The translations under genes were made by a program, and so were the position numbers. DNA of 36,483 nt from Reclinomonas americana ATCC 50394 (Eukaryota): contig PS015230.1 of the NCBI GenBank assembly GCA_048213135.1, positions 50,347 to 86,829 on the forward strand, given 5' to 3'. The notes under the pieces are model-generated. The model saw nothing but the letters and a program-made list of their open reading frames with translations. It had not been told where the DNA came from and made no database searches. This document shows positions 858 to 31,957 of this stretch, piece after piece. Each line of letters opens with the position of its first letter. Within the stretch, counting starts at the first letter, position 1.

Positions 858-1066
858 CACAAAAAAACAGTCGATTTTTTCATGTCAGTGACAACGTGTG
901 TATGTGGCAAGGAGACTGTGAGAGACGCAACTCGACGAGACATTCTCGCTTTGTTGAGTGAGTGTGAGTGTGTGTGTTTAGGTTTTTTTCGCGCGCGAAA
1001 CGGTCGAAAATTTGTCTGAACACACACTCTCCGCACACTCCGCGCACACTTTTCTCTCTCACACTC

Positions 1067-1405
1067 ATGTGGAGCGGTCTGTTCTACGCTGCTGTGAGCA
1101 CGTTTGGGCTCAATGGAGTTGCGCGCTCACTCACTCACTCCTCACACTTGCTCCCACATGCGCGCGCGCTGACACTCTGTGTGTGTTGCAGTTGTTCTTT
1201 GTGGTGGCAGTGACTCTGCAGACTGACAAGGTCTCTCTCTCTCTCTCTTGTCACGCGCGTGCTCACTGTCTGGCCACTCACACACACACGCACACAGTTC
1301 ACTGACTTTACCTACTCGTTCTCGTTTATCATTACGGCGATCATCTTGCTGCTCAATGGCGACTCGATCAACGAGGCGCATGCATGGGTACACTCTCCTC
1401 TGCCA

Positions 1406-1436
<31 letters not shown>

Positions 1437-3161
1437 AGAGACACTCATTGTCCGCACGACCCCACAGATCGGCAGTCTGATCGTGATCGCGTGGGGCACA
1501 CGACTCCTGCTCTACCTCGTCATTCGCATTCACAAAATGGGCCGCGATCAGCGCTTTGACAAGATCCGCACAGACACAGGTGCAAACGGGCGCAGTCCTC
1601 TGCCTCCACCAGTCGCTCACTCTANNNNNNNNNNNNNNNNNNNNNNNNNNNNNNNNNNNNNNNNNNNNNNNNNNNNNNNNNNNNNNNNNNNNNNNNNNNN
1701 NNNNNNNNNNNNNNNNNNNNNNNNNNNNNNNNNNNNNNNNNNNNNNNNNNNNNNNNNNNNNNNNNNNNNNNNNNNNNNNNNNNNNNNNNNNNNNNNNNNN
1801 NNNNNNNNNNNNNNNNNNNNNNNNNNNNNNNNNNNNNNNNNNNNNNNNNNNNNNNNNNNNNNNNNNNNNNNNNNNNNNNNNNNNNNNNNNNNNNNNNNNN
1901 NNNNNNNNNNNNNNNNNNNNNNNNNNNNNNNNNNNNNNNNNNNNNNNNNNNNNNNNNNNNNNNNNNNNNNNNNNNNNNNNNNNNNNNNNNNNNNNNNNNN
2001 NNNNNNNNNNNNNNNNNNNNNNNNNNNNNNNNNNNNNNNNNNNNNNNNNNNNNNNNNNNNNNNNNNNNNNNNNNNNNNNNNNNNNNNNNNNNNNNNNNNN
2101 NNNNNNNNNNNNNNNNNNNNNNNNNNNNNNNNNNNNNNNNNNNNNNNNNNNNNNNNNNNNNNNNNNNNNNNNNNNNNNNNNNNNNNNNNNNNNNNNNNNN
2201 NNNNNNNNNNNNNNNNNNNNNNNNNNNNNNNNNNNNNNNNNNNNNNNNNNNNNNNNNNNNNNNNNNNNNNNNNNNNNNNNNNNNNNNNNNNNNNNNNNNN
2301 NNNNNNNNNNNNNNNNNNNNNNNNNNNNNNNNNNNNNNNNNNNNNNNNNNNNNNNNNNNNNNNNNNNNNNNNNNNNNNNNNNNNNNNNNNNNNNNNNNNN
2401 NNNNNNNNNNNNNNNNNNNNNNNNNNNNNNNNNNNNNNNNNNNNNNNNNNNNNNNNNNNNNNNNNNNNNNNNNNNNNNNNNNNNNNNNNNNNNNNNNNNN
2501 NNNNNNNNNNNNNNNNNNNNNNNNNNNNNNNNNNNNNNNNNNNNNNNNNNNNNNNNNNNNNNNNNNNNNNNNNNNNNNNNNNNNNAGGAAGGCCACCGGC
2601 CACGCAATGAACCACCAGCCCGAGGCCGCACCCGCCGGCAGCGAGGCGATAAAGAGGCCGGACCAGGTCAGGATCTCGCCAAAGTAGTTGGGGTGACGCG
2701 AAAACGCCCACAGGCCGGAGCGGATAAAGTCGTGCGGGTGGCGCACCTTGAAGGCGAACTTTTGCTGGTCCGCCACCGTCTCAATGACTACTCCGCTCAC
2801 GGCGATCGCCCAGCCAACGGCCTCGGTCCACCAACGCGCAGACGATCGCTCGTGCACGACAACACCGCTGTTGTTGAGCACGACCAGAGGCAAGCTGATA
2901 ATGACCACAGCGATGGCTTGAATGGCCCAGAAGCGCGCGAATCGAGCTGTGTGAGAGAGANNNNNNNNNNNNNNNNNNNNCTCGCCCCTGACCATCACCT
3001 TCTTGCTGGTGCGTCTCAGCGGCATTCCGCCACTCGAGCGCGCCTACGAGAAGAAGTATGCGTTGCGCGATGACTACAAGGAGTACAAGCGGAACACACC
3101 TGTACTCGTGCCGTTCACACTTGGACTCGTGGAGAGCGCCGAGCCGAGAAAGCGCATGTGA
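1067..3161 (+). CDS. DUF1295 family (steroid 5-alpha-reductase-like) membrane protein; one internal exon lies on an inverted contig
   Basis: Exons 1067-1117, 1192-1230, 1298-~1387, 1468-1579, then 2946-2586 read on the minus strand, then 2981-3161. Family motifs WGTRLLLYLVIRIHKMGRDQRFDKIR, ETVADQQKFAFK, GLWAFSRHPNYFGE and SGIPPLE...YKEYKRNTPVLVPF. Confidence 0.9.
1412..1437. repeat. (CA)n microsatellite in a DUF1295 intron
   Basis: Direct reading of the sequence. Confidence 0.9.
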
Positions 3162-3235
3162 TTGGTGCGCACAAAGTGAAAACGGTTTATTCCGGTTACC
3201 CGGTTTTTGTTTCTTAAGTAGAGAGAGAGAAGAGT

Positions 3236-5637
3236 ATGGGTGCCTCGAACAGCGCCGACCACTCGGCGGGGGCGCGTATGAGTAAGCGCGAGTCGCGCAC
3301 CAAGTTGCACAAGAAGGCCATGGAAAGCTCGCAGTATGTCGCCTGGGAGCAATCGACATTGGTCAGTGAGAGTGGACACAGAGAGATCGATTGGTGCTGT
3401 TTGTTTGCTGATGATTGTGTGTCGTCGATCAGGCGGGCAACTCCACTGTGGAGCAGCAGGCGGCCAAGGACGCGATCACTGCGTTGGGTGGCGATCACCC
3501 GTCGATTGCACTTGGCGACGATCTGCTGCTGCGCGTGCACGACTTGTCCGGCGACTGCCTGCTGCGCAACGAGAGCGGTGTGTCGTCGACGCTGGTGAGT
3601 CCGTCGGGAAGTGGGCGGAGGGCGATGGATGTGCACTTGCCGGCGCGATCGGCGCACTCGTGTGTGAGTGTGTCGCCGGATTGTGTGCTGGTGTTTGGCG
3701 GGGCCGAGGGCACTCGCGTCCGCAACGAGGCCTTCCTCATCGACGTTGCCGGTGCGGCCGACGTGACAGCAGTGGAGACCAAGGAGTGTGGCGATATCGT
3801 CGTGCAGGAGGCTGAGCAGCTCGGCGTGTGCTTTTACGAACGGTCAGCTTCTCGTTGCTTGGCTGCTCTCTTGAAGGCAGCAGATCGCTGACTCGTCGTG
3901 GTCGCGCGCAGTGTACGTTTGCAAGGAGCGGCTCCGTCGGCACGATCGGGAGCGGCGATGGTGGCACTGGACTCGGAGGGCGACGACGATCCGAACGTGC
4001 ACGTGCTCATGCACGGCGGCTACGACGGCGTGCAGTACCTGGGCGACTTGCATTTCATGTGTGTGCGCAATCGTGGAGCGGCCAAGAGCACCAACGAGGT
4101 GACGACGCAGCTGCTGCTCATGTACGGCACACTGCCGACTCCGCGTGCGCATCACACAATGGTGGCGCTGTCGCCGCACACGGTGTTTNNNNNNNNNNNN
4201 NNNNNNNNNNNNNNNNNNNNNNNNNNNNNNNNNNNNNNNNNNNNNNNNNNNNNNNNNNNNNNNNNNNNNNNNNNNNNNNNNNNNNNNNNNNNNNNNNNNN
4301 NNNNNNNNNNNNNNGTGTGGGGCGGTGTGTGCGGCACTCATTCGCTCGACGACGGCTACGTGCTCGACCTGTTGAATGTTGCGTGTTTGCCGCATGCGCA
4401 CTGCACTCGCTCAATCGACCTCGCTTGCAAACTCACCCTCTTCTTCGCGCAGATGGAGTCCAACAAGGTGCCACTGCGCGGTGCGGTGCCGTCGGCTCGT
4501 TTCGCTCACGTGTCGGTCATGATCTCGCCCATTCACTTGCTCATCTGGGGCGGTGTGACGGCGCAACCCGAGGACCCGTCGGTGGTCTACGTCCTCGACA
4601 CTGCACAACTGGAGTTTACGCGGTATGAGCTGTCGGGCGACGTGCCACCGACGCTGTTGCGATACGCCTCGGCCGCGCTGCTGGCTCCCAATCGCCTGCT
4701 GCTGTCGGGCGGCGGTGACGCCGACTGCAACGACTCGGGCGACATGTACCTGATCAACACGGAGACCCTATCGTGCATTCGTGTCGCCGAAGACACCTCA
4801 CCGCACATGCCGGCTCCGCGCTTCCGCCACGCCATGCTCGCCATGCGCGGTTTGCCCGGACGCGTCCTCATGTATGGCGGCTGTGGAGCGCTGGAGGATC
4901 TCAGCGACTGCTACCTGTTGACTGCTCGTTGCGTTGATGCAGAGCAGCGGTCTCTCGCCTGCGTTGTGCAACTCACTTTGTTTTTTTGTCTGTGCGCCCC
5001 ATGCAGTCACCACTGATGGTATTCCTGTGCCCGACATTATGGCTGCTGCCGGTGCCGCGGTNNNNNNNNNNNNNNNNNNNNNNNNNNNNNNNNNNNNNNN
5101 NNNNNNNNNNNNNNNNNNNNNNNNNNNNNNNNNNNNNNNNNNNNNNNNNNNNNNNNNNNNNNNNNNNNNNNNNNNNNNNNNNNNNNNNNNNNNNNNNNNN
5201 NNNNNNNNNNNNNNNNNNNNNNNNNNNNNNNNNNNNNNNNNNNNNNNNNNNNNNNNNNNNNNNNNNNNNNNNNNNNNNNNNNNNNNNNNNNNNNNNNNNN
5301 NNNNNNNNNNNNNNNNNNNNNNNNNNNNNNNNNNNNNNNNNNNNNNNNNNNNNNNNNNNNNNNNNNNNNNNNNNNNNNNNNNNNNNNNNNNNNNNNNNNN
5401 NNNNNNNNNNNNNNNNNNNNNNNNNNNNNNNNNNNNNNNNNNNNNNNNNNNNNNNNNNNNNNNNNNNNNNNNNNNNNNNNNNNNNNNNNNNNNNNNNNNN
5501 NNNNNNNNNNNNNCGCCGTCGACGATGAAATCAGCGACGCCTTGCGCGCCCTGGCCATGGACAACTTTATGGGAGACGACGACGATGATGATGGCGATGG
5601 CGACGATGGCGATGCCTGCAATGCCGGTGGCGACTAG
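3236..5637 (+). CDS. Kelch-repeat (beta-propeller) protein with an acidic tail
   Basis: Repeated P-x-R-x-x-H...hhhGG units: PARSAHS..VLVFGG, PSARSGA..LMHGGYDG, PTPRAHH..VWGG, PSARFAH..LLIWGG, PAPRFRH..VLMYGG. Introns start at 3362, ~3828, 4378 and 4928. Two N-gaps lie inside the gene. TAG 5635-5637. The start may be 3236 or 3278. Confidence 0.85.
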
Positions 5638-5852
5638 CTTTCAACGCAGGAAGAAAATAATGTTTTGTTTTTGAGTTTGTTTCCAATCATATCACCCACA
5701 ATGAATGAATGAATTAGTGTTACAGCAATCCTCACACGCGTGTGGTACACAATTATTCTCCTTTCACACACAGATAGTACACACAAGCACACTAAACAAA
5801 AATTGTCTCTACGAGAATACAACACTTCTACAATCTCACACACACACACCAA

Positions 5853-8800
5853 TCACACAAATTTCTTGTACAAGCACGAAGTGATGGTGTGCTCCGAGCT
5901 GCCAATGTCGACAGCCACACAAAACGGCCCGTTTCCGATGCCCTCGTACGCCTATGATGGAGGTCAGTGACATTCTCATCGCGACGCAAGCAGATACACA
6001 CACGAGCACACACCAGTCCCAAGTCCTCGGAGTTGAGGAAGAACCGGACCGTACCCTGGTCCACATTGACCAGCACACCCACTCGATCGCCAGGCGAATA
6101 TGCCCGACCGTATTTGACCACCTCACCGGCATGGCGCCGCACACCGTCACTATTGTAGCCTGCATCCCATACACAGATTCAGCAACAGCAGGAAAAACAA
6201 CACAATTTTTGTGGACGACAACGACCACGCACCCCAGCTCATCTGGTCGGCTCCCAAGAAACCCTGCAGGTTGCATCGATTCGCAATGCAGAGACCCACC
6301 GACACCGACAGCGGCTTTGTCGGTGCCTCAACCGCATACTCGGCGTACCACACGCCATACGAGAATACGGACTCGCTGCAGGCCACCGATCGCCCGTTGC
6401 GCCCACGCCCCAACACCGACAGACCATCGCTCTGCGAGGTGAAAGCACATGCAGTCAGTCGTCAGTCAAGTGCGACGCGAGTGTCGCGATCGAGACGCAA
6501 CAGACAGCTTGGCAAAGGTTCCCAGTTGACGTGGATTAAAGGGCAGGCACTCGGCGCCGTTGCGGGCGCCACGAGCCAGCGCCAGAGTCGTCGACACCAG
6601 GTCCTTGAAGGCGGCCTCGGCACGCAGTCGAGTCGTCTCCACCGATCTGTGTGTATGCACACACGTGAGCAGACAGGCACAACAGTTTTTCGATTGGAAT
6701 AGGTTTAGACGCAACGCAGGTGCCTTGGGCGGCATGTCGGCTGCCGCCGTGCTCGATGAAGATACCAGCGAGCGCACGGGTCTGACGGGTGCCGCCGCGT
6801 TTGGCGGTGGCGGTACAAGGCTGCGGGCGCCTCCTGCAGGCGGTTTTGTGCGCAACATCGCCTCCAGACGCTCCATCAACTGCGCGTCACGCTGCGGACT
6901 GCCCACCGTGTCGACATCTTCACCAATCATGGTCACCTCGCTTGCCATCACTGTGGGTGAGCCCGGGAGTTGTGGAAGCTGCGGTGGCGGCGGCGGAGTC
7001 GGTGGTGACGGCGACTTGGTGACCGTTGTTGTCGTTGTCGTCGCCGGAGGTACCGGCGAAGCACGACGCGATGGTGGCTTGGCTGACGATGGACGTGCCG
7101 GCGATGGTGGAGCCGGTGGATCCAACAGGTCGGAGGGGAACTGCAGGTGCACGGAGTGAGATTGGAGGCTAAGGGGGAGAGAGAGAAGATATCGGCATTT
7201 CTTCACCAGCGGATTCTGGCGCAGCGCGGTGACCGTCGAGGCCGGCATCTCCGCGTATGTGATGGTCGCAAAGAGGCCACGGCGCGTCGGTTCATCCAGT
7301 GTCTGCTGGTGCAGCTGTACGTAGCGGAGCACAATCTGCAGCTTCTTGTCCTGCACGCTCTGCGGTTGTGGGCGGTCACTGCGCAGAGTTCGTCGCCTGC
7401 ATCACGAAATGGTGAGAAGGGCGACGAGAATAGGTGCAGCAAGAAGGCAGACGGCACTCACAGGACATCCGCCGAGAGCGCATTGACAAAGGCCACATTC
7501 TCGCGCTCGTTCATCACATCGTGTGCCCCCGGCGCCGCATTCAGATCGCGCAACATGGCCTCCTGCACAATTTGCGACCGGCAAACGCTGCTGGCGTACA
7601 GCAACATCAGCGCAACATCGGCCCCAAACGGCGGCGTCACGCCGTCGCCTCGTTCCTCTGCACAAGCACGCAGAGAGAAGTCAGACTTCCTGCAACGAAA
7701 ACTGAACTACACAGGCTACGCACCAGACACACTCGACACCAGCTGCTCGAGCTCCTCGCGACTGACAGAGGCCAACGACGAGTCGGCCCACTTGGATCGC
7801 AGCACAGTGACCAGCGCACGCTCGCAGTCCACACGAGGAGGTCGTGGATGCTGACGGAAGACCTGACACATGTCGACCACGGAAAGCACGCTGCCGAGAC
7901 GGCGATCGTGCCAGAACGACGACAGACGGCGACCGACTGCCGCAAACGCCGCCGAACGAAGCTCGTTCTGCGGCGGCTGCAGACGTGCTACCTGCGACAG
8001 GAGCTGCAGCGGATCGGCAGTGCCGGAATCGAGCGCACGCAGCAGCAGCGTTCGGATGCGTGCAACCGCCTCCGGGCACACCAGTTGCTCCGCCAGTATG
8101 AGCAGCGGAACGTACACGTCGGCAAGTCGCGTGTCAAACTGCGAGAAGAGGACAACACAATGTGAGGGAGTCGCTCACAACAAGTGAAGCAGCACAAGCA
8201 GCTTCGCTCACCTCTTGCAGGCCGGCAAGCGACTCGGCATCGATGCTCTGCAGCAGCAGCGGGAACACGCCGGATGTGTCGCGAATGTCCTCGGGCAAAC
8301 GAACAGTCGCAGGCGGGGAGCGTGCGTCTGAACCCACCAGTTTCGCCACGCGTGCACTGTGCTTCACCAGAAACTTGCGATTGGCTTTGAAGCTCTGCTC
8401 CGTCAACTCTGTGTCAGATGGGCAGGGTGAGTTTGCAGGGTGACAAACAACCGGATACTGCGTGGCGCTCGACTCACCGCCGCGGCTTCCACCACCAGCC
8501 ACCACCGTCAGCACGGTAATCTCCAGAGAACCGTCGTCGACCCGAGTAACCTCCACTGGCCGCGGCGACGAGGACACGGAAACCGCCGCCGATGGCGCCG
8601 TGGATACCGCCGGCGTCCTCGCCGGTGCCTCCGACCGAGGGCTGGCCACCACACTGGCCGCCGAGATGTCGCCCCGACTGCTGGCCGCCGCACTCGCCGG
8701 CGCCGACTTCTCCACCGACTGCAACGTCGGGAGGTCGTCGACCGACGGGGCACGCTGCACAGCTGCGACAGCGTCCACACTCTCCACATTGCCGCCGCGA

Positions 8801-11297: not shown

Positions 11298-11324
11298 NNN
11301 NNNNNNNNNNNNNNNNNNNNNNNN

Positions 11325-14300
11325 TGATCGTGATGGCGTCCTGTGAGCACGCAAGCAAAAGGGTGAGACAGTGATATCCACCAGCCTTCTTCTCCTGTGA
11401 GACTCACCATCGGGATCGGCTGGAGGGACGATCATAAATCACAGGCGCATGATCCAAGTCGCCAGCCGCATCGCCGGCCGCCAAGTGACTCGTGCGCCAC
11501 GGAGTACCGTCGCCGCCACCGCGCCCATCACGCGACGAGTGAGAGAGCGGGGTGATGACACGCTCATCGTCGTCGTCGTCACCATCGGCGACCATCTCCG
11601 TGGACGCGTCGGTGCCCGAGTCGACCGACTCGGCCGTCTCCGCCAGCGACTCAAAGTGCTCGAGTGGCGGAATGGACAGATCGAGTGGTGGTGGTGGCTC
11701 GTCGTCGTCCGGCGGCGCCACCATGAGCCCAGCTTGCCGTTGTCGGCGACGTAATTGCTCCTGTTGCATGGCCTGCACCTCGGCCGCGGCAGCAGCCACC
11801 GCAGCAATCTCCATGTCCATCTCGGCGGGCGACAGCAGCGCTTCGGGTGGTGGCAGAGGTCGCGAGGCGGGTGTGGCACGAGGCTTGAGACTCGAGTGAC
11901 TCGGTGCCACCGGCAGCGCCGGGTCACGAACCGTGGGCGGTGTTGGTTCGGCGGTGGTTCGTGGTGGTCGCTTGAAGGCTGGCGCGTCGGGCCCGTAGCT
12001 CCGCGGCGAGTCGATGCCAATGGAAAATGCAGCTTGCCGCCGTCGGTCGACTGCGTAGGGGAGTTGAGTGGGATACAAATGAAAGAGAATGAATGGTGAG
12101 AAATGAAATGCACGCAACAAGCTTCGCCACCAGTCGGCGTGCCACCTGCTCCACCATTGTCCCTGCCGACCGTACCATCTGCATTTCTGTCACTCCCGAA
12201 TCTGTTCTCCTGATCTCCACCGGCTGTCGGCGATGTCACATTGCCAACGGCGGCCAGCGACAATGGTGTGCCGGCCGACGACAGCGGTGAGCCGAATCGC
12301 GGCAACGAAAGCGGTTCGACACCCGCCGCCGACGCATCACGGACAGACGTTCGTGACGGCAGTCGCGGCAACAGCGCTGTCGACGACTGCGATGGTGGTT
12401 GCTGTGGTGGTTGTGGTGGCGGCGCACCAGTTTCCTCGTCGTACGCCTTCATGGCTGCATCGTGCACGGATCCACTCTCAAATTCAAACGTGGCCGGTGC
12501 GCCGAGAGCGGCGAATTCGTCAAGCAGTCTGAGGAGAGCATCAGCGACAAGTTAGTGCGTGCATGCGTGGCAGGGAGAAGAGAACGAGCGGCGGTGGTTT
12601 TCGCAACTTGCTTCGCTCAATCAAGCACCGAAAGGCGGCCTCCACCACGTACGGAGTGGCGGTGGCAAAGGTGATGCGAAAATCGGAAACGCGAATGTCC
12701 CACACGGTGAGGTATTTGGTCGCCTCGTCCACTTCGACTCGCAGGTCGCGGTGTATGGGGTTGGTGTGCGACAACTGGCGGGCCTTACGCGGCTTCGACG
12801 GACCGCAGCACCACCACGGCGCCACCTCCGAGGCCAGGAGGAGAGGGCTCTCCCAGAACGCGAATGTCGAGTCACCGCCCACACGCAACTCGGCCGGGAA
12901 TTCTTCCACGACCCGACCACCGTCGTAGAAAAACACGGTGGTCTCGCAGCAAAAGCCCTCGGCCACGTACTGCTTGAGCAGTGCGTAGTCGGCAGGGCGC
13001 AAGTGGCGTCGATTCACTCGCACCGGTAGTGGTGGAGGCCCCTCCAACGTCAGGTGGCGGCGTCCAAAAGACAGCGGCTGCGGGGTCGTTGACTCGGCCG
13101 TGTCGGCAAAGCGCACCACACTCCCGCTGCGGAACTGCGACGATGTCGGTCGTCGCGACATGCCGCCACCACTGGGTGACGCCGACGCAGGCGGAAACAT
13201 GGCCGTAGTCGCTGGTGAACCGGACCGATAGGAGCGTGGAACCAGCTGCGTCCCCGGACCCGACGACGGTAATGGTGGGCCTTGCTGCTGCTGCTGCTGC
13301 TGCTGCGGGCGTGAATGCTGCTGTGGCGGGGGCGGTGGTGGTGGTGGAGGTGCAGGCTGCATTGATGCGTGTCGATAGGTGCGCTCGTGTTCGAGGGGTG
13401 GATGTTGCAGCGGAGGATGTTGTGGTGCCCGCAGCAGTTGCTGCTGATAGTCACCGCCGTCGATGCCGGGTGTGTCGGCGGCTGGTGAGGCGACCGGGGC
13501 GCTGCCGGCGCGCAGAACAACGGCCTGTGCAGATGAAGAAAGTGAGCAAGAATGCGCAACATGAATGAGTTCTCCCCCACACGCGCGCTCACCCTCGGCT
13601 GCTGCGTCGGATTCGGTGTCGAATGCACAGGGCCGTGCACTCGCGGCGTCGGTCGATTGACACGAGCATGGTACGCTTCCGCGGCCTCCCGACGAGCGCG
13701 ATCGGCAGCCTCCTCCTGCTCCTGCCGCTGCTTCGCCTCCTGCTCCTCATTCAGCCTCTGCTGCAGCGCGTGTCGCTGGGCGAGCTTTTCGCGCAGCGAC
13801 GTCGTTCCCACGCCAGCAGCAGCAGCGATTCCCACACCAGCGCCACTGCCCGGTGTCGACACCGACATTGGCGACGCCGTCGCCTCACCCTCCGTGTCCG
13901 ACGACGGCAACGGCACGACGACCAGCGGCCGCGGTGCCGGCGAAATGCTCTGATCCCGACTGCTCACCGCCGTGTTACTGGCCGGTGTCTGCGCCGCTGC
14001 CATGGTCGACGAATGCCGGAACTTGGTCGACTCCAGCGGCGGATTCATCAGCACCGAAGCCGCCACCGTCGCCGGCGATGGCGTCACTTGCCCCGACGAC
14101 GGCGATCGATGCACCTGAAAAAAAAAACACCAGCGCTCAATCGATGCATTCACTTGCTCGACCCGGCGCATGCACATACCTTGCCACTGCGATTCGGCGG
14201 CGGTGGTGTCGGCGATCCGAGCACCGGCGACGCATCGGGTGGCGGTGGTGTCGTGCCCGCCGGCAATCGCATTCTCCAGCTCGCCTGCGCCGCCTGCTTC

Positions 14301-15406: not shown

Positions 15407-15477
15407 GGCATCCTCATCTCGATGCGAATCGATCTTGTCTTTGGGCACTTGTGTAGGTTCCGCGCACCAGTGCGAGT

Positions 15478-16468
15478 ATGGTGAGCCGCGAGCTGCGTGT
15501 GGGCCTCAAGGAGGTCTCACTGCATGATCGTAAGCGACACGCGCTTGATTCGGTGCGTGCACCTGTCTCTCCCAGACTGTCTCTCTGTTCTCTCTGATGT
15601 TGCTCGTGTGCAGTTGCGTGCGCACTTCCGAGCGCGTGTGGAGCAAGACCGTCGGCGCTTTGTGCAGCATGCGAGAGAGCGACGCCGTCGCTCGACGGAG
15701 AGCGGCATGCAGATGGAGACGGATGACTTTTTGCTGGAGTTCATGCAGGGAGCCAAGGCGCAAGGTCTCGTCCTTCTCTCCACCTCCTCTCCTTTGTTTG
15801 TCGTGGTGGGTGACGTTGTCTCGCAGAGTTGATGCAGGGCCTGTCGGCGGAGATGGAGACGGAGCTCATGTTGCAGCTCGAGGCGGAGGTCCTCGAGGAG
15901 ATGCAGGCGATGGAGCGGGAGCGGGAGCAGCAGATGGTGGAGGAGTACGAGTTGGCGGCGGAGATGGAACGCATGCGTATTGACGAGGCGGTGAAGGACA
16001 TGTTTGACACCACCACCCCGGATGTGGTGCGTTGTGCAGTGTGCACGAGTTGTTGTCGATAGTGGTTGCTCATTTGTTTTGGTTGGCAGGTCGTGTGCCC
16101 CGTGTGCACGCGCAATCCGGTGATGCAAGACGGCAGTCGATTGTTTTGCGCGTGCGGGTGGCGCATCAACACGGGAGTTTCGTGTGCTTTGTTGGCGTGC
16201 CCCCTCCGTTCTTGAGTCTCATGATTTCCCCTCAGATCGGCCCCGTGTCACTCGATGGTCTGCAGCGACAGCTCGTGACGGCGTATCACGCCCATGCGTT
16301 GCGTCTTGCTCCCTCCGACTTCGCCCCCTAACCCCCGTCCTCACCACTCCACACACACACAGCTCCGCGTGCCCGGCCACACCGTCGTTCGGCGTGGATC
16401 GAGGCATGGGCACCGAGTTCCTCGTTCTCCGATGCACACAGTGTGGAGCATTCGAAATCGTGGTGTGA
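15478..16468 (+). CDS. RPAIN: RPA-interacting protein (RIP/RPAIN) homologue
   Basis: Six exons. N-terminal LRAHFRARVEQDRRRFV, an acidic middle (ELMLQLEAEVLEE...EEYE), VVCPVCTRNPV..FCACG, and C-terminal HA..CPATPSF....LVLRCTQCGAFEIVV* match the RPAIN architecture. Confidence 0.85.
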
Positions 16469-16532
16469 ACACACCAAATCGTCACAAATATATTATTGTA
16501 CAGGAACGCTCATGATACAGTCACATGTTCTC

Positions 16533-18709: not shown

Positions 18710-18743
<34 letters not shown>

Positions 18744-19606
18744 CCGTGAAAGATTGGTGAAAGACTGGTGAGAGACACGGTGAGAGGCAAGCGAGATGCA
18801 CAGTGAGACACACGATGAGAGATCAGTGTGAGATCAGTGAGAGACACACACAGTGAGAGATCAGTGCGCGGTGAGAGACTGGTGAGACACACGATGAGTG
18901 ATAGGCGGGAGATCAGCGAGAGAGACACACAGTGAGAGATCAGTGCGCGGTGAGAGATCGGTGACAGATCAGTGAGAGGACGAGCTCTGTGTCGTACATG
19001 AGACGCAACATGTTCCACTCGTCTTCCGAGGTGTAAATGAGCAGCATGATGCGCGTGGGTTCCGATCGCGACACATCCGTGCCAAAGATGAGACGAGTGT
19101 CCTCGTGGATCGCATCAAACAGCTGAAACCTGCTCACATAACGAAGGAGAAGAATGAGGACATGAAGAGAAGATGATGAAATGATGATGATGTTGATGAA
19201 GGAGAAGGAGACGAAGGAGACGAAGGAGGAGGAGAAGGAAGAGAAGAAGAAGACGAGGAAGAAGAAGAAGAAGAAGGAGGAGGAGAAGACGAAGGAGGAG
19301 GAGGAGAAGTAGAAGAAGGAAGAGAAGACGAACAACAGTCATCAGCAACACTGCCTCTCTCTCACACACTCTCTCACACACACATGCGCCCACACGTGAC
19401 CTCTTCTTGAAGAGGACTTCAGGGCTGAACTCATGGCGATGATGCGAGGGCGCACCAGGCAACGAGGAGACGCTGATGAGTGAGGCATGAGACATGCGCG
19501 AGGAGGCCGAGACCACAGAGTGCGAGTCGCCTCCAGCGTGAGACGCGCCTGCGCTGTGCGAGGAAGCGGCGACGAGCGAGCGTGAGGAGGCGGCTGCGGC
19601 GGCCAT
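16533..19606 (-). CDS. Degenerate protein-kinase-fold (pseudokinase-like) protein; central exon structure partly unresolved
   Basis: ATG 19606. Spliced EWNIHVEVYRLLRSKWVANLLDKFFDEDTGRWYIVVERGGLTLEEYL...LSMDERKAILGQVAACWIHLYNLN resembles kinase subdomains III-VIa, but no HRD or DFG was found. The 3' exons LDDLVERVHAL../DILFLTKKIL../VVAADTL..STI* end at TGA 16535-16533. Confidence 0.55.
17074..17222. repeat. G/A homopurine low-complexity tract
   Basis: Runs of ggaagggg/gggagagg next to a gap. Confidence 0.8.
17990..18980. repeat. Degenerate intronic minisatellite (CAGTGAGAGATCAGTG-like units) on both sides of a gap
   Basis: Recurrent agtgagagatcagtg / gtgagagacacac units at ~18040-18200 and ~18770-18980, inside the ~1 kb intron of the kinase-like gene. 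Confidence 0.75.
19160..19335. repeat. (GAA/GAG/GAT)n purine-rich trinucleotide tract, intronic
   Basis: Direct reading of the sequence. Confidence 0.85.
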
Positions 19607-20316: not shown

Positions 20317-20574
20317 CTACATTGGTGGCGGACCTGCATCGGTGTGGTGGTCGCCGATCATGTCGGCAACCACAGCGAGACTGGCCGTCTCGTGACCCGG
20401 CTGGCTCAAGTTGTGCAACTTTACAAAACCAGCCTTTTCCGCCTGCAGACAGCAAATGGTCAGGAGAAAGAACAACAGTCTCGCTTCCTCTCTCCCTCTC
20501 TCTGCGTGCAACAACAAGCAACAGCTGTCTTGATGGCCAAGTCCAAACATATAAACCAACACAAACACCAGTTC

Positions 20575-20663
<89 letters not shown>

Positions 20664-22977: not shown

Positions 22978-23012
<35 letters not shown>

Positions 23013-23921
23013 CGCAACGCTGCACGGAGCACTTGACTGGTGCCAGTCGGCGGCGAGATGAGCACAATGCTGCGTCACCGACGAGCAAGGCCGTCAGTCA
23101 GTCGCTTATCACGCGCGAGAGAGCGACACATACACACACAGCGCAACTTGTACTTGCGATTGCGCAGCGTCGACAGACAATACACAAAGTCAATGTCGCC
23201 AGTGATGGCCACAATCGTCAGCGGCGGCGGGTTATCCAACGCAAACGCCATCATGTCGACAATCTACACGCAACGTGATGAGCTTGCGGATGACACCAGC
23301 TCGAAAACAAGGTTTCATGACAGCGCACCATCATCTGATCCGCAGTGTTCTTGTTGCCCGTATGTGGTGTATCCGTCAACGATACTGCGCATTAAACACC
23401 CTTGCTCCTCAGCATGCGCGCGTGGATAGGCGCAGACGGAGGCAATACACGCACGGCAAACCTCCCGACGACTGCAACTCATGTCGCAACGAGCGCTGTT
23501 TCTCCGACACACCAATCTCCAAGTATGCCTTGAAGAGCACAATCGGACCAAATGCATGCACAGTCTCCCGCAAGCGCTCCACCAGCACATACCCCGGCAT
23601 GCCCTTGGGAACCGCCGCATTCTCTACACACATTTATGGTTGAGATCGAGAGTTGCAACACACATGAGTGGCACGAGCGCCAGTCGCAACCTGTGTCCCA
23701 GAAAATGGCCACAGGTCCTTGACACAAGTCACTGGGGGCGCTCTCTGCACTCGCCTCCTCAATGTGCACCTTGGGCGGCGGCGGAGGTTGCGGTGCTGTT
23801 ATATGACTTTTGTGAGTGCGTCTTTTATGTTTGAGAGGAGATGCGTACCAGCAGCAGTGAGCCGCATGTTCGGCGGACGCTGCTTGTGACGCGCAGACGA
23901 CGGAGGTGCCGCGGAAGCCAT
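20317..23921 (-). CDS. NYN-domain ribonuclease with a C-terminal LOTUS/OST-HTH-like domain; two internal exons lie on an inverted contig
   Basis: NYN motifs VAIFWDTENAAVP, NKNTADQMMIVDMMAFALDNPPPLTIVAITGDIDF, YNIVLI and ANVVLRWRYDVL. Exons 21202-21472 and 21538-21657 read on +, then 20442-20317 on -, giving WSAIGSQMRQRNPLIYSRQGCRNLKEYLVQ/AEKAGFVKL. ATG 23921. Confidence 0.85.
20576..20662. repeat. (GT)n microsatellite abutting a gap
   Basis: Perfect GT dinucleotide run of more than 40 units. Confidence 0.95.
21963..22101. repeat. ~30-bp imperfect direct repeat (GAGTTATGCG.T.CAGATCGCAGCTGTCG), two copies about 107 bp apart
   Basis: Copies at ~21965-21993 and ~22072-22100, each preceded by (GA)n. 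The second copy ends at a gap. Confidence 0.8.
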
Positions 23922-24171
23922 TGTGTGTGTGTTATGTGTTCAAGTGTGATGACGTCACTTTGGTCGCGATCGGATTTGTCACCTGCGCAAGGTAAGCGCG
24001 CGCGTGTTGTTGTTGCTGTTGCTTCTTTGCTGTTGTGCGTCTTGTGCGTGTGTGTATCGTGCGCGTTGTTGGAAAGCGCGGCAAAGTTGTTGTGATGTCT
24101 CATGGCAGTTTGTCTTCTCCGCACAGCCTGCCTCCCACTCTCTCTTCTCCTCTTCCCTCTCCACCAAAGCA

Positions 24172-26209
24172 ATGAGCGACGAACACGGTCTGGAGTCGGT
24201 GGACGACGAGGCCAACATGAGCGAGGGCGCGATGTCCATGTCACTCCCTCCGCCCCCGCCTCTGCCGCCGCCACCGCCACCCACTGTGAGCATCAGTGAG
24301 GAAGGCACAGTCACATTGTCGATCACCGCTGCCGTCAATCCGTTCGAGGTGAGCTGCTTGCTTTGTCGACAGTGATGATGATGATGGCGAGTGGCTCGCT
24401 CGCTCGCTCGCTCGCGCTGGGCGAGCAACACGCGCATTTGCTGCGGCAAACCCCCCTCGCGCCCCAATTGAACCTCCACCTACTCCTCTGTCTCTGTGTG
24501 GTGTGCGCCACGCGTGTTTTCTTTTCGAGTGCGCGTGTCTCGTGTGTTTGGTGTCATTGGCGCTTCTCTGTGTGTGCGCATTGTGAGAGCATTTCCCGCC
24601 AAATTGTGCGTTTCCACTTTGAGTTTGCTCATTGGTTGTCGTCGCAGCCGCAGCGCAAGAGGCCACTGGAGGCCGATGGCAGTGCACGGTCCAATTCGCC
24701 GCCTGCTGTGCGGCAGCGGCATAGCATGTCGCCGACACAACAACAGGCGCAACAGGAGGAGCCGAATGCTGCTGCTGCTGCGGCGGCGGCGGCTGCTGCA
24801 GTAGCACAGCTGCTTCCTGCGCAAATAGACGCGGCGGCGCTTCTGAACGACCCGAACCTGCTGGCGGCGCTGGGGAATTTGCCGCCGAGCATGTTTGCCG
24901 GACCGGAAATGGAGCAATTGCTGGCGGCACTGGCGGCCTCGACGTCACCGGCCACGTTCCAGGAGATGTTGAGCAACAGCAGTGCGTTCTTGCAGCCGCT
25001 GGGAGCGCCTGGTGGCAATCCAATGGCGGCAGCGGCAGCAGCGGCGGCAGCGGCGGCGGCTGCTGCGCTCAAGTCACCGGGCACGCCCGGCAGTGGTGGT
25101 CTCGGTGGCATGTTCCCCGGCAGTGGCGGGCTGAACGAGGACTCGGGCTCGGGTGATGGCGACAGTGGACGCAAGTCGCGTGGACGCTGCACGTACTACC
25201 CGTGCGAGTTCCCCGGCTGCACCAAGGTGTTTACGCGCTCGTTCAATTTGCGGCGGCATGTGGACACGGCGCATCGCGGTGTCACCTATCCGTGTTTGGT
25301 GGAGGGCTGCACCAAGGTGTTTACCGACGTCTCGCATCGGCGCTCTCACGAGAAGAATGCGCACGCGGATGTTGCGTCTCCCCATCCTACTACTTCTACT
25401 CCCTCCTTCGCACACTCACTTTCCCTTTTGGCAGTTGTTCTCTCCCTCGGCTGGGAGCTCACGACGCCGGCAGAGCGACGCTGGCGCACAACAGCAACTG
25501 ATGCAGGGCATGCCATCGCTGGAATCGGAGACGGCCAATCTGTTGGCCATGCAGCAGGCGCTGCAGTCGCTGGATCCTGCGCAGTTTGCCGCTCTCGCCA
25601 ATGTCGATCTCAACTCGCTGCTCCTCTCCACGGTCGCCGGCACATTCCCGCCCGAGCTGCAGTCGCTGCTGGCCGGCCAGCTCAACATCCCCGCCGAGAT
25701 GGTGGCCGGCATGTTGGCACCTCCGCCGCCACCTCCGCCACCGCCGCCGCCGCCACTGCCACCGAGTGACAGCGACATGCCGGCCGCCGAGGACATGAGC
25801 TCCTCGTCGCCGGCCACAACAACAACGACACCCACAGCCGAGTTGTTGCTGGGCGGTGACCCTAATGCCGCCAGCAGCTCCATCGATGCAGCCTCTGGTG
25901 CGTGCTTGTAAAACCTTCGAAATAACCAGAAGACCCACGGACTTTGCTGACGGTGGTACGCGCGATGCAGTCATTCCACCGTCGCTCCCCATGATGCCCT
26001 CGTCAACCGTCTCCTCCGGACTCTCCATGGACCCCATGCTGCTGATGCCGACCATGATGGGCAAGTCGGCGGAACCAACACGGCCCCTCAACCAATCCGT
26101 CATTGTCTCTCAGGCGGTGGGCATTGCCGATGCCAACCTGCCTCCACTGCGCCCAGAGATGCAATGTGCACTCTCCGTGGCTCCACTGCCCTCTGCCGAC
26201 ACTGTCTAA
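24172..26209 (+). CDS. C2H2 zinc-finger transcription factor (two fingers) with Ala/Pro/Gln-rich regions
   Basis: Fingers YPCEFPGCTKVFTRSFNLRRHVDTAH and YPCLVEGCTKVFTDVSHRRSHEKNAH at ~25196-25364. Introns start at 24349, 25371 and 25898. TAA 26207-26209. Confidence 0.88.
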
Positions 26210-26280
26210 AGCGACGCTTGAAAGCAAGCAACAATGAATGAAAATTTACACTTTGATCATTGTTGTGTTGCTGCAGCGAC

Positions 26281-26983
26281 ATGGAGCGCGCACTGGCCGA
26301 TGTCGACAAGGGCCTGCGCAGTGCATCAGTGGAGACGCGATGTGCAGCAGTCGCACGCTGTGCACCTCTGATTGCTGCATTCCCACTGCCCTCACTCATC
26401 AACGCCACCATTCTGCGCCTGTCTGCGCTCTACAACTCGAGGCACGCACGCACACTCACACTTACACACGCAAGAGAGAGAGAGAGGGAACAGCATCATC
26501 ACTGACAACTGTGCATTTGTGATTTTTTTGCCTGCATGCAGCACCAACTTTCTTCGCTATTGGATTCTGAAGGTGTTTGAGAAAGTGGAGGCGCACATGG
26601 GCCGCCTTCTCAACCCCGAGACCGTGCTCTCACACGTGACTGCGTTGCTGGAGAGCAACGACTCCACTGCGCGGACTCTGACACTGCGCGTGCTGATCAC
26701 GATGCATGCACTGTTGCCGGCACGTGTGGACTTGCATCATCGCTTCTTGCGGCTGCTGGCGGCGCAGCAGAGTCAGGAACGCATTGCTGTGCTGGCACTG
26801 GTCGATCGACTGTGCGGGGATTCGCGAGAGTTTGCAGTGTCGGTGCTGCCGCGTGTGCTGGAGATGGTGCAGGCGACGGGCGCGACGGACTCGGAGACGC
26901 GTGTGCGCGCTGTGCATGTGCTGCGGCACTTCCACTTTGATNNNNNNNNNNNNNNNNNNNNTCTCTCGTCTTCCCTCTGTGTC

Positions 26984-27043
<60 letters not shown>

Positions 27044-29925
27044 TCCTCTCCCTCCCTTCCTTCCCATTGTGCCCTTCTCACTCTATCTCTCTCTCTCTCC
27101 CTCTTTACTTCCCCTTCGTCTCCCCCCAACAGGCACTGACCACCACGCTGCAACACGACAACACGCTCGTCGCCTCGCTGAGTTTGCGATTACTCGCCGA
27201 GTGCACCACTGGCGATCGCGACGATGCGTGGATTGTGACGCAGTGTGAGCGCTCACTGCTCCTGCTGGTGACCGACAGCACCGCGGCGAGTGGGTCCGAT
27301 GCTGTGGCAGAAGACGACGAGGACGCGAGACTAATGGATGTGGATGGCGATGCTGTTGATGGAGATGGCGCGGCGCCAGGCCGTGTGGCGAGTGGCAGCC
27401 GGCGCCGTCAGAAGACTGCTGGCGAGGAGGATGACGATGATGATGGCCGGCGATCATCGTCACAGTCTCGCCGGTTACAAGCCGTTCGGCATGTCGTCTC
27501 CACGTTGCAGTCCGTGCTCCAGTGCGTTGCCTTTTTTCGTCTCCCACTCTCTTTCCATATTCCATCTGCTCACATTATGATTATGTGGGGCAGACGCGGC
27601 GTGCAGGATTCTTCGCTGCATGCCGACGTGCTGCGAATCATCGTGTCGAGTCTTGTCACTAGTCTGAAAGGTTCACCCGCATTGTCAGTGTACTCTTCGT
27701 CTCTCCATCTGTCTCACTCCGTATCTGCAGAGTCCACCACTGTGGCCCTACACCATGTGTTCTCTGAAGCACTGCTGCGCGCCGGAATCGTATCCGTGGC
27801 AGAGCAGCGCGTGAACGACGATTTGCTGTGCACCCTCGTGGCCGCCGTGTGCGACCGGCCGTGCGTGACCCGCGAGGCGGAGACTGTATTTGTTGCGTGC
27901 CTTCCCTCCGTCGCACACGCCTCGCCTTTTAGTCGCTCACTCACCCGCCTTTTCCAAAGTATCAAGCGTGTCGCTTTGCGCTGCGCACGAGTTCGCGTGG
28001 CGAGCACGCGCCAGTGGCGTTGGCGGTGTGTGACGCCGGCCGAAGATTACTCGACAGCGGCGACTCCTGGCGTGTGTACATGCTGGTACGCGAGTGTGTC
28101 TGCGAGGGATTTGTTGGACCGGCTGCCGAGCTCTTGCGTGGCGTGGTGGAGAAGAAGGCATGTGCCTCTCATCCCGTCGATCACACGACTCTCTGTTCTG
28201 CCCGTGCCTCCACTCACACTGCGTGGGTGCGCAGGTCGAGTCGGAAATCGTACTGGCCTGGATGACGTGCCTGATGCACTTGTGCTCCTTCGAGCAGGAG
28301 GTGGAACGAGCGGCGGAGTCAGCTGGCGAGTGGAGTCTGCTCGACAGCGCGCACCACCTGCTGCGCGCACAAGAACAGCTGCATGTGAGCTTTCTTCACC
28401 CTCGTGATCTCTCGCGCAGCTACATTGCTCATGGTGCATAACGCAGGTGTGCCGCCCGTCGACCGACGGGTTGCGATTCCAGAAGCGGTTTGTGGAGATC
28501 TACGGCGACGTGTGTCTCACGCTGGCGGGTATCCACGCACAGCTCGGCAGCCTGCTCAATCATCCGCTGAGTGATCGTCTGTGGATGGTGGACGAGTGCG
28601 TGGCCTCGAGTGCCGGCTGGAAGGACCAAGTGGCCACTCTGCGAGACCGATTCGCTGCGCTCTCGGCTGGCTTTGTCGACATGGATGCCGTGTCGGTGGT
28701 GTGCCTGCAGACGTTGCGTGATTCCAAGTGGGTTTTCTTCAGTTTCTTCTTTTTGCTGAAGCGAGTGGTCGACACAGGTGGGAGTCGGCGTTGGATCTGG
28801 TGTGGAGAATGGTGTCGTTTGTCGAGGCACGAGCTCACGAGTTGCGTGCATGCCTCGCTGAGTTGTGTTTCCCAGCTGCATGCTGACTGTCGATACCAGT
28901 GGAGTGACTGGGGTGCTGACGTTGTACGAGCGTCTGGTGGTTCCCGACGCCCCGCTCTTTGCCGACACACTGCCCCTGCGCCACGTGGCACCCGCCGAGG
29001 CGGTTGCTGAGTTGGTGTCGCTCGTGCAACTCGGAATCCCGGAGCAGTTGAGGGCGCTGGCGGACCCACAGGTGAGAGTCTCTTGGTGGCGATTCGTTGC
29101 AGTTTGTCGCTCATCCACCATGCAACAAAAAGGATGAACTGGCATGTGCTGTGGAAGCCTTGGAGGCGGTCATTGCGCGTGTACAATGTCTCGGCATTCG
29201 CCTGCCAAGATACTTGCTCGTCACGGCACCACGGGCCGCCGTCAAGGTGCGCCTCCCGTGTGTGTGCTCCAATCAGTAGTAAGCATGGTGTATGACCCTT
29301 TTCCTCCCCTCCCGCCCAGCTTGACGTCAGTCCCAAGCCGAGAAAGAACAAACCATCGGCAGCGGTCGATGTGCATGCCATCTTCCCGCTGCACGTCTCC
29401 GGGGTGGTTGAGGGACCAGCGCGAAGTTGCGGGCTCATCACACGTAGTACTGCATCGACAGCAGTCTCACTTTTTCTCTCTCCCTGCCCCTCTGCCGCAG
29501 GTGTGGCGCAAGTGGAGCACGTTGAGCTGCGCGTCAATGTGGAGAACTCGTCGATTCCGCCCGCTGCGCTGCCACCACCACAGCGCTTCTTCCTGGCTGT
29601 GTCGCCCGACGACCACAGCTTCTCCCAGTCGTGCCCTCTGACGCTGTCCGTGGTCGGCGAGTACACGGTGGTGGTATGGGTGCTGGTGGCGGGGGCGCAC
29701 GAATCGAGTGTGTCGTCGTCGCAGGTGAGTCGCGCGCGCCTCCTGCTCACTTCCCCCCGACACTCACTTTTTTGTGCACAGCCGAGCAATCGCGAAGGAT
29801 TGTTGGACTTTGTGCGGACCACGGACGAGTGGCCAGAGACCGGTCGTGTGTTTGCGCACGGCATTCGCAAGCACCCACTCGTCGTCCATCGCACTCGCCT
29901 CTCTGTGCAACCCAAGGGCTCATAA
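26281..29925 (+). CDS. INTS7: Integrator complex subunit 7 homologue
   Basis: N-terminus ALADVDKGLRS..RCAAVARCAPLIAAFPLPSLINATILRLSALYNSSTNFLRYWILKVF..SNDSTARTLTLRVL matches the INTS7 N-terminal pattern. Later LPRYLLVTAPRAAVKLDVSPKP precedes a beta-rich C-terminus. About 12 introns. TAA 29923-29925. Confidence 0.88.
26984..27040. repeat. (CT)n microsatellite in an INTS7 intron
   Basis: Direct reading of the sequence. Confidence 0.9.
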
Positions 29926-30013
29926 ACTTCGCATAACACTAGTTCATTGCGTGCTCCGTCACGGTCAGTCAACGGGAGAAAAGAGAGGGAGGGAGGGATG
30001 GCGTGCACAGGGC

Positions 30014-30343
30014 TCATGAGAGGCCGCGGCCTCTTCGCAACTTGACGAACGCTGCAATGGCCAGGCACGCGCTCAGACCAAGCCTGCGGGCCCAAATGTG
30101 TGAGTGGCGACGATAATTGTCACGACAGTGTGTGCACGCACCAGGTGGTAGCATAGATGAGATGCTTGGTGGGCGACACGTAAAAGTCGGTGAACTCATC
30201 CGGCGACTTGAGGTACGGCAGCGAGCCGACACGCGGCGCCTGAATGGCATCTGCCACACACAAAACAGTCAGCAAACTCGCCTCGCTGCTGTTTTGCGAA
30301 GAACAAAAAAACGCAACCAACAAACAACTCCAGCTGCTTCGGC
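30014..30343 (-). CDS. SURF1: SURF1/Shy1 cytochrome c oxidase assembly factor, 3' end (5' part in the gap)
   Basis: Spliced LFVDAIQ...VSPTKHLIYATTWLGLSACLAIAAFVKLRRG* has the H-L-x-Y-x-x-T-W motif followed by the terminal transmembrane helix typical of SURF1. Intron donors at 30317 and 30141. Confidence 0.75.
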
Positions 30344-30725
30344 NNNNNNNNNNNNNNNNNNNNNNNNNNNNNNNNNNNNNNNNNNNNNNNNNNNNNNNNN
30401 NNNNNNNNNNNNNNNNNNNNNNNNNNNNNNNNNNNNNNNNNNNNNNNNNNNNNNNNNNNNNNNNNNNNNNNNNNNNNNNNNNNNNNNNNNNNNNNNNNNN
30501 NNNNNNNNNNNNNNNNNNNNNNNNNNNNNNNNNNNNNNNNNNNNNNNNNNNNNNNNNNNNNNNNNNNNNNNNNNNNNNNNNNNNNNNNNNNNNNNNNNNN
30601 NNNNNNNNNNNNNNNNNNNNNNNNNNNNNNNNNNNNNNNNNNNNNNNTGATTGATCGACTCTTTGGATGTCTTCTTGACGTCGTTCTTGTGTATTCGACT
30701 TGCCCCCGATGCCCCACCATTCGCC

Positions 30726-31957
30726 TCACAAGTGACAGTGGTCGCGCATACGATGCACAAAGTGCACGAGGTTCGGGAACTCCAGAACGCGCTTGTGCAG
30801 CGGATCGTCGAGGTACGAGGCCTCGGAGACCAGCTGTGCGAGGTAGCCAAAGGCGACTGCGTCGGCCGTGGTCGGGCCCGGCTGGCCGAGGAAGAACTCC
30901 TTGTCGGCCAGTGTGGCGGAGAAAGCGTCAATATCGGCAATCATCTGTGCGTGCCAGTTGTTGTCGTCAGTTTTCTGAAACAGGCGGGGAAAAAGGCAAT
31001 GCTGCACGAGCGCGTACCGACGACCAGAACCTGTCCTCCGTGTTGTTCATGTCACCGCAGTGTGACAGCTTGTTGTATAGGCGGCGTCGCTTCCACCGCG
31101 ACATGACGGTGGCCGTAATCGCCGCCATGCGCGGGCGGAACAGGTGCTCCTTCATCACGTCCTGTCACCAGATGAGAACGGAGAACCTACACCAAGGGGA
31201 GAGGGAGAGGCACGCAACAAAGGCCTCGGGGACCATATATCTGGAAAATTGGAGGCCTCGCCGCAAGTGATCCTGTGCAACACAACACGCGGCCGATGAG
31301 TGAGAGTGAGAGTGAAGAGAAAATTCTTTCCCGCTGACACGGAAGAACCTCGCAGGTGCGATAGATAAAGTGAGAGACGGCCTTTTGTGTCGGCAACAGG
31401 TTGGCGTCGGGATTGAGATCGGGGAACTCGTGGCGCAAGAACTCCATAATGGCCTCCGTGTCGCCAATGGCGCGGTCGTTGAGCACGATGAACGGCAGTG
31501 TCAGTGTCGGGCTGACGCGTGTGGTCATAATCTCCCTGTGTGCGGAGAATTGAGTGTCAAAGTCGAGACTAGATAGAACGCACTGGGGTGGAGAAGAGGA
31601 GGAGGGACGCAACACAGGCTCGTACGGAATGCGACTCATGGAGAGCCACGCCATGAGGGCGAGGCACGAGGGTGACACGGAACCAGGAATATCAAAAAGC
31701 GGGGGCATCACAAACACGTACAGCAAGTCGCGCCGGAAACAGCCACGCTGTGGTATTCACTCTGTTCAGTGCAAGGGCACACACGCACACACGCGCGCAC
31801 TCACCGCCCGCGCAAACTCGACAGCTTCGGCACTCTGCGCACGGAATTCTTCGTGGCTGGTGCCGCGCGGCGGCGGCAGAATGAACAGACGGTAGATCAC
31901 CATGGCGGTCAGGGCAATCAACCACGGCGCCAGGAACACCACCCACATGGTGATCAT
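30726..31957 (-). CDS. FAX/metaxin-like glutathione S-transferase-family protein with an N-terminal hydrophobic anchor
   Basis: Motifs SVSPSCLALMAWLSMSRIPYE, SPTLTLPFIVLNDRAIGDTEAIMEFL and DIDAFSATLADKEFFLGQPGPTTADAVAFGYLAQL...FPNLVHFVHRMR. Five phase-consistent introns. Confidence 0.85.

Follow-up and report, generated by a model that had tools for sequence, protein, structure and literature searches.

GTTGCG(T) as an apparent second, abundant class of 5′ splice sites in a 36-kb stretch of the Reclinomonas americana genome

In a stretch of 36,483 nucleotides (nt) from Reclinomonas americana ATCC 50394 (assembly GCA_048213135.1, contig PS015230.1, positions 50,347 to 86,829; the whole stretch is called the window below), GTTGCG(T) seems, judged from the sequence, to be a real and frequent type of 5′ end among ordinary introns. 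The commonest hexamer at the other, ordinary donors of the window is GTGCGT, and GTTGCGT is therefore the local consensus plus one extra T. With slightly more than even confidence we propose that these sites are real U2-type donors, that they are cut before the first G, and that they are recognized in a displaced register by a U1 small nuclear RNA (snRNA) with the standard 5′ end.

An earlier note on this DNA had listed 18 introns starting with GTTGCG, 13 of them with GTTGCGT; the motif is present at all 18 coordinates on the strands given, and the count of 13 is correct. In the window GTTGCG occurs 52 times where 35.2 ± 5.6 copies are expected, and GTTGCGT occurs 21 times where 7.3 ± 2.7 are expected; none of 100 dinucleotide shuffles reached either number, and the expectation for the heptamer under an order-2 Markov model is 5.7. 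The excess is confined to the form ending in T, GTTGCGA (8 observed, 7.5 expected), GTTGCGC (15 and 10.3) and GTTGCGG (8 and 6.9) showing none. Fourteen of the 21 copies of GTTGCGT are modelled intron starts, namely the 13 of the earlier note and 931(−), and one more, at 28713(+), is a possible donor. Three copies are exonic, where they encode Leu-Arg (268(−), 12889(−) and 32947(−)). Two lie within introns, at distances of 11 and 35 nt from the 3′ end (23268–23274(−) and 28841–28847(+)), and one spans an acceptor (caG|TTGCGT, 15613–15619(+)), in all three cases probably by chance. The 6–7 copies that are not donors correspond to the chance expectation.

Nine genes of the window were modelled by hand, each with domain or profile support, which gave 42 curated introns in total. 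They are a DUF1295, a Kelch, a SPRY, an RPA-interacting-protein-like (RPAIN), an NYN, a C2H2 zinc-finger, an INTS7, a GST/FAX-like and a CCCH/methyltransferase-like gene, the last of which, with a CCCH zinc finger and a methyltransferase-like part, has weak domain matches only. Fourteen of the 42 introns begin with GTTGCG, where chance would give about 0.5. The hexamer background, which the earlier note had wanted compared, is 52 GTTGCG among the 4164 GT dinucleotides of the window, and the binomial probability of 14 in 42 is p = 8.5e-17. The note had put the share of the class at about a quarter of the introns; between its count and ours the share lies at a quarter to a third.

For comparing donors, six were added from genes without domain support (claimed sites, 931(−) and its neighbour 831(−)), so that the catalogue comprises 48 donors, 19 GTTGCG and 29 ordinary ones, from the curated part of this one 36-kb window, which is interrupted by 12 runs of N. 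The window has a GC content of about 60%, is very compact and contains many short introns of 43–100 nt; searched against Rfam at gathering thresholds, it yielded no RNA gene. The spacing of the genes is tight: the DUF1295 stop codon is followed after about 75 nt by the next start codon (3158–3236), and two convergent stop codons stand about 220 nt apart (5637–5859). A gene finder written by ourselves, which was blind to donor sequence and allowed GT donors only, served as a guide and was too error-prone for counting introns: it missed GC donors and chose wrong in-phase donors in the GST, NYN, RPAIN and INTS7 genes.

The 19 introns resemble the others in the window. All begin with GT, and of the 17 whose 3′ ends are visible 15 end in CAG, one in TAG and one in AAG, compared with 24 CAG ends among 27 other introns. 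The median length is 70 nt vs 66 nt, a CTNAY branch-like motif lies 11–46 nt from the 3′ end in 16 of 17 vs 21 of 27, and the pyrimidine fraction upstream of the AG is 0.64 vs 0.59. In their ends, branch motif and pyrimidine tract the GTTGCG introns thus have the features expected of U2-type GT-AG spliceosomal introns, as far as sequence can tell. Like U12-type introns they form a second donor class beside the major one, but in branch and 3′ signals they agree with the other introns, and an assignment to the U12 type was rejected, the donor RTATCCTT having no match in the window. Apparently AAG, instead of CAG or TAG, ends two introns of the INTS7-like gene, at 27960(+) and 29133(+).

Two ways in which the class could be spurious have to be considered together: the models may have been fitted to the motif, the sites not being donors at all, or the introns may belong to a mobile family with GTTGCGT at its end. 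Both sets of gene models were indeed built by hand, and the donor-blind finder recovered only seven GTTGCG donors, with clear errors elsewhere. However, the excess of the heptamer equals the number of modelled donors, all other copies being at chance level, and three profile hidden Markov models as well as Pfam coordinates agree with the models. A 9-mer beyond the first 9 nt is shared by 5 of 136 pairs of GTTGCG introns, 12 of 351 pairs within the other class and 12 of 459 pairs between the classes. Since the introns share sequence at the same rate as other introns and have nothing in common beyond the donor, they are not copies of a mobile, introner-like element, and we regard this whole group of explanations as very improbable.

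The position of the cut was examined with protein profiles, reading frames and stop codons on spliced models. Wherever these could discriminate, a cut before the first G of GTTGCG was favoured by the models. In the DUF1295 gene the model spliced at 1118 scores 88.1 bits in the profile, a GC donor 3 nt downstream 84.3, GTGAGCA at 1094 83.5 and the unspliced sequence −0.5 bits. In the INTS7-like gene, GTTGCGT at 27892 scores 134.3 bits, vs 131.3 for a GC donor at 27895 and 129.9 for GTATTT at 27886; the GTATTT site, called an equally valid alternative in the earlier note, scores 4.4 bits less than GTTGCGT. In the NYN gene (23690) a GC donor 3 nt downstream, joined to the same acceptor, creates a TAG stop.

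These comparisons bear on the nearest alternative reading of the sites, namely that they are GC-AG introns beginning 3 nt downstream (GTT|GCGT), the GTT being exonic. This alternative is always in frame, and introns of this kind seem to be present in the window. The INTS7-like gene has two probable ones, at 26442–26541(+) with AG|GCACGC, where the INTS7 profile runs straight from position 73 to 74, and at 28158–28234(+) with AG|GCATGT, where the model scores 134.3 bits vs 127.2, 127.1 and 125.9 for the nearest GT donors. One profile test, that of 29426, does not separate the two registers. The TAG stop in the NYN gene and the losses of 3.0 bits (INTS7) and 3.8 bits (DUF1295) speak against a downstream cut. 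In addition GTTGCG donors are found in all three codon phases, and an invariant GTT is therefore no coding feature; an exonic GTT would be left without a coding reason. Finally, the two likely GC donors are preceded by AG and have A at +3, neither of which holds for T|GCGT. We consider the GC-AG reading highly unlikely for the GTTGCG sites.

The ordinary donors are degenerate, with 23 different hexamers among 29; GTGCGT accounts for 5 of the 29, followed by GTACGC, GTGCGC and GTGAGT-like hexamers. When N|GUUGCGU and G|GUGCGU are aligned as 7-mers, there is a single difference between them. The two classes differ sharply at the last exon position (−1), which is G in 24 of the 29 ordinary donors vs 2 of the 19 GTTGCG donors (Fisher p = 8e-7; p = 1.2e-6 after dropping one donor that had been chosen by this very rule). 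Compared with a background of 30%, G is slightly too rare at −1 of the GTTGCG donors (p = 0.046).

Base pairing with U1 was counted on the assumption of the standard 5′ end as printed in PMC4856993. In the normal register the 19 GTTGCG donors have on average 4.8 paired positions; a shift raises this mean to 6.3 and a bulge at +3 to 7.2. The ordinary donors have 6.6 in the normal register. We therefore propose, from complementarity, a mechanism in which U1 with its standard 5′ end would bind the GTTGCG sites shifted by one nucleotide or with one U bulged, while the later spliceosome (U6, U5 and Prp8) would still position the cut at the GU. As the intron side would supply the pairing, the G at −1, on which the ordinary donors depend, would be dispensable. 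Displaced pairing with a standard U1 reaches the level of the ordinary donors, and U1 therefore need not have changed. The earlier note had pointed to a modified spliceosome, and for that part we found no support, although it is not refuted either. Its other part, that a register rare elsewhere serves a large share of introns here, has the support of the sequence evidence: 14 of the 42 begin with GTTGCG, compared with 1.5% of human sites in validated noncanonical registers (PMC4856993).

Of the two registers the bulged one gives more pairs, whereas the scarcity of G at −1 fits the shifted one better, or else reflects a trade-off between exon and intron contacts. A few other donors resemble the class. 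A|GTTTCGT at 16177(+) and A|GTTACTC at 831(−) begin with GTT, lack G at −1 and resemble G|GTTCGT and G|GTACTC with the same displacement. Together with A|GTTGAGT at 9584(−), which is ambiguous because as a donor it is indistinguishable from G|GTGACA at 9590, they suggest that the extra-U form extends beyond GCGT. Two further donors, G|GTTCTT at 31348 and G|GTTTGC at 23461, have T at +3 yet retain G at −1.

A rival explanation, less likely than a standard U1 but the one we take most seriously, is that an snRNA has changed (a U1 with an altered 5′ end, a second, variant U1 or a modified U6 box), so that GUUGCGU is its cognate in the normal register. The GTTGCG donors are some 1000-fold more common than the corresponding human register (14 of 42 vs 54 of 201,541; PMC4856993), both donor classes of the window most often have a C opposite nucleotide 5 of U1 (at +4 in 11 of the 29 ordinary donors, at +5 in every GTTGCG donor), and the missing G at −1 fits neither standard register cleanly. 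Yet a changed snRNA is unneeded, the displaced complementarity to standard U1 being equal to that of the ordinary donors, and those donors (G|GTGCGT, G|GTGAGT, G|GTACGC), which begin some two thirds of the introns, are compatible with a standard U1. Also counting against it, the 5′ end of U1 is, to our knowledge, nearly invariant across eukaryotes. Somewhat less probable again is that two parallel 5′ splice-site codes exist, with N|GUUGCGU as the normal-register target of an altered or extra snRNA, which could be a U1 with a 5′ end complementary to UUGCGU or a U6 with an altered box. If this were true, an snRNA would have co-evolved with a major donor class, rather than a bulge being tolerated.

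For plants and animals there is a two-class model of donors. Applied to the window it would say that no special register exists and that donors are either anchored in the exon, by G at −1 with a degenerate intron side, or anchored in the intron, by a strong motif read mainly by U6 or by proteins, with GTTGCGT as no more than the favoured motif of this kind. G at −1 and GTTGCG are strongly anti-correlated, as such a model expects; moreover the donors with G at −1 are very degenerate on the intron side (the 23 hexamers among 29 mentioned above), and the ordinary donors lacking this G mostly have a strong intron side (A|GTGCGT, T|GTGAGC). The model leaves unexplained, however, why the motif is the ordinary consensus displaced by exactly one U, and it predicts no particular partner RNA. 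We think it unlikely, about as much so as two parallel codes.

Several points weigh against recognition of GTTGCG by a standard U1 in a displaced register and a cut before its first G. Every cut site is deduced from protein models, and the profile margins are modest, 3–5 bits. At 29426 in the INTS7-like gene splicing adds 5.1 bits, yet the scores of the two registers are level (137.6 bits vs 137.8 for the GC donor at +3). In-phase alternative donors exist at several sites (12607, 23147 and 27892), and 6 of the 48 catalogue donors entered as claimed sites or as their neighbours. As for the mechanism, which remains a prediction from the donor sequences, the 5′ end of U1 was assumed to be the standard one. 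A bulged register should still benefit from a G at −1, yet this G is rare; a shifted register predicts A at −1 and C at −2, and neither is seen in the GTTGCG donors. In ordinary donors +5 and +6 pair with U6. The GTTGCGT donors have the G and U at +6 and +7 instead, so that a bulge would be needed at the catalytic stage too. This catalytic-stage bulge is the weakest point of an explanation with standard snRNAs, and because of it we keep a minor but real share of our confidence for a changed snRNA.

Human 5′ splice sites of atypical sequence, to which U1 binds shifted or with a bulge, were reportedly described by Roca and Krainer in 2009 and by Roca and co-workers in 2012. They are alike to the sites proposed here in that an extra nucleotide stands between the GU at the cut and the part pairing with U1, and a shift or bulge restores complementarity; here, the pairing with U1 is predicted from sequence. 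In Tan et al. (2016; PMC4856993) both shifted and bulged registers were validated in human cells; the bulge +2/+3 class comprises 54 of 201,541 sites, and the validated noncanonical registers as a whole 1.5%. The two sets of sites differ in frequency, the human ones being rare and those here making up 14 of 42 curated introns, and in the paired part, which is AAGU there and GCGU here.

The second comparison is with small GC-rich green algae such as Ostreococcus, for which Irimia and Roy in 2008 are said to have found strong, near-invariant donors of one class and of the type G|GTGCGT. The window is likewise compact and GC-rich, has short introns, and its ordinary donors have C at +4 and G at +5; in contrast to what is reported of the algae, a degenerate ordinary class stands beside a dominant second class that carries an extra U. 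GC-AG introns, which probably occur in the window (26442 and 28158), are the third relative, being the nearest alternative reading, disfavoured by test at the GTTGCG sites. A literature text search for GTTGCG and GTTGCGT in DNA and RNA spelling yielded nothing on splicing as judged by titles and the openings of abstracts; the genome paper of the organism may show such donors in a logo.

The individual sites are as follows. On the left of the window, the first intron of the DUF1295/steroid-reductase-like gene (1118..1191(+), 74 nt, GTTGCGC) leaves an open spliced model. The Kelch-repeat gene has two GTTGCGT introns, one of 75 nt (4378..4452(+)), the exon after which corresponds to positions 38–184 of the profile Kelch_KLHDC2, and one of 79 nt in phase 1 (4928..5006(+)), for which there is a sole frame-keeping acceptor and the donor-blind finder agrees. 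The SPRY-domain gene also has two with GTTGCGT: one of 69 nt (6647..6715(−)), a later exon matching SPRY with E = 1.8e-6, and one of 70 nt (6432..6501(−)), where a change of frame is required, reading through meets a stop 37 nt in, the donor is the sole in-phase GT from 45 nt upstream to that stop, and the donor-blind finder again agrees. The introns at 4378 and 6715 are in frame and without a stop codon, so that we infer their removal from intron-like signals only.

A gene without domain support contains a GTTGCGA intron of 79 nt (12529..12607(−)), placed by frame analysis, with an alternative in-phase donor G|GTGCTT 21 nt upstream, and a GTTGCGT intron of 68 nt (12051..12118(−)), where a frame shift is required between two protein-like frames. 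A GTTGCGC at 13560(−) was rejected as a donor, as it sits within a G|GTGAGC intron. In the RPA-interacting-protein-like gene the GTTGCGT intron of 65 nt (16298..16362(+)) belongs to a model whose exons match RPA_interact_C positions 1–27 and 50–79; with the introns at 16177 and 16298 both removed, 23 residues are placed over the 22 profile positions between the matched exons. The GTTGCGT donor at 19003..19009(−) follows an open exon, and its intron enters a run of N at 18709. This intron (18710–19009) contains several copies of a CT-rich unit of about 30 nt, similar to CTCTCACCGCGCACTGATCTCTCACTGTGTG.

Three GTTGCG donors belong to the NYN-domain gene, whose exon 5 was confirmed as NYN with E = 2.4e-6. 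The intron of 67 nt at 23624..23690(−) (GTTGCGA, phase 1) joins F-W-D-T to E-N-A-A-V-P on splicing, W-D-x-E-N being what we take to be the conserved start of this NYN subfamily. The intron of 78 nt at 23070..23147(−) (GTTGCGC) follows an exon that matches NYN positions 82–118 to its last residue, and has in-phase alternative donors at −6, +12 and +18. From the GTTGCGT donor at 23012..23018(−) the intron enters a run of N at 22977. After the zinc-finger exon, in a gene with a zf-C2H2 match in the upstream open reading frame, a GTTGCGT intron at 25371..25434(+) measures 64 nt, or 103 nt if it ends at 25473; both in-frame acceptors are CAG, and the donor-blind finder took the longer version.

In the INTS7-like gene the GTTGCGT intron of 68 nt at 27892..27959(+) ends at an AAG acceptor, its model being the one with 134.3 bits given above, and the GTTGCGG intron of 75 nt at 29426..29500(+) raises the score from 132.5 bits unspliced to 137.6 bits spliced. 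A further GTTGCGT intron of 163 nt at 28713..28875(+) is uncertain; it is compatible with the frame, and the profile is neutral (137.5 vs 137.6 bits). The GTTGCGT intron of 67 nt at 30251..30317(−) has the sole in-phase GT, with 26 nt of the upstream exon visible beside a run of N. The GST/FAX-like gene has two with GTTGCGT. One of 78 nt (31536..31613(−)) lies between exons matching GST_N_4 positions 1–18 and 26–82, the model placing 8 residues over the 7 positions between them. In the other, of 57 nt (31162..31218(−)), reading through meets a stop 51 nt in, and the spliced model is open to the GST_C_6 exon. Absent from the earlier list was a GTTGCGT intron of 89 nt at 843..931(−), which the donor-blind finder chose and which has no domain support. 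The gene to which it belongs, at the left end of the window, appears to start with a coding exon of only four codons, ATG TCT CGT CGA (932–943(−), ATG at 943), followed by a second exon of 11 nt.

The INTS7-like gene matches PDB entry 7cun_G with E = 5e-18; no PDB match was found for the two exons flanking 27892. Its profile was built from 71 of 150 relatives, the closest of which are 35–36% identical and come from Acrasis kona, Physarum, Naegleria lovaniensis, several Amoebozoa and insects. A word-indexed protein search gave no match for the INTS7 exon or the C-terminal exon of GST, and an exact exon word of 28 nt none in metagenome contigs. The relatives found for the DUF1295 protein do not exceed about 49% identity over most of the query. 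The conserved central part of its gene lies at 2586–2960 between two runs of N and is on the minus strand, whereas the flanking exons (1067–1624 and 2981–3160) are on the plus strand; most likely 2586–2960 is a contig that was put into the scaffold the wrong way round.

If a quarter to a third of the introns use a displaced register, recognition of the 5′ splice site and cutting would be uncoupled by one nucleotide throughout the genome of R. americana, and the organism would be a natural system for finding out how U6, U5 and Prp8 fix the site of the cut. Gene finders trained on GTRAGT-like donors or on a single donor model would mis-annotate a large share of its genes. The contrast at −1 (24 of 29 vs 2 of 19) offers a simple, testable signature of a trade-off between exon-side and intron-side contacts.

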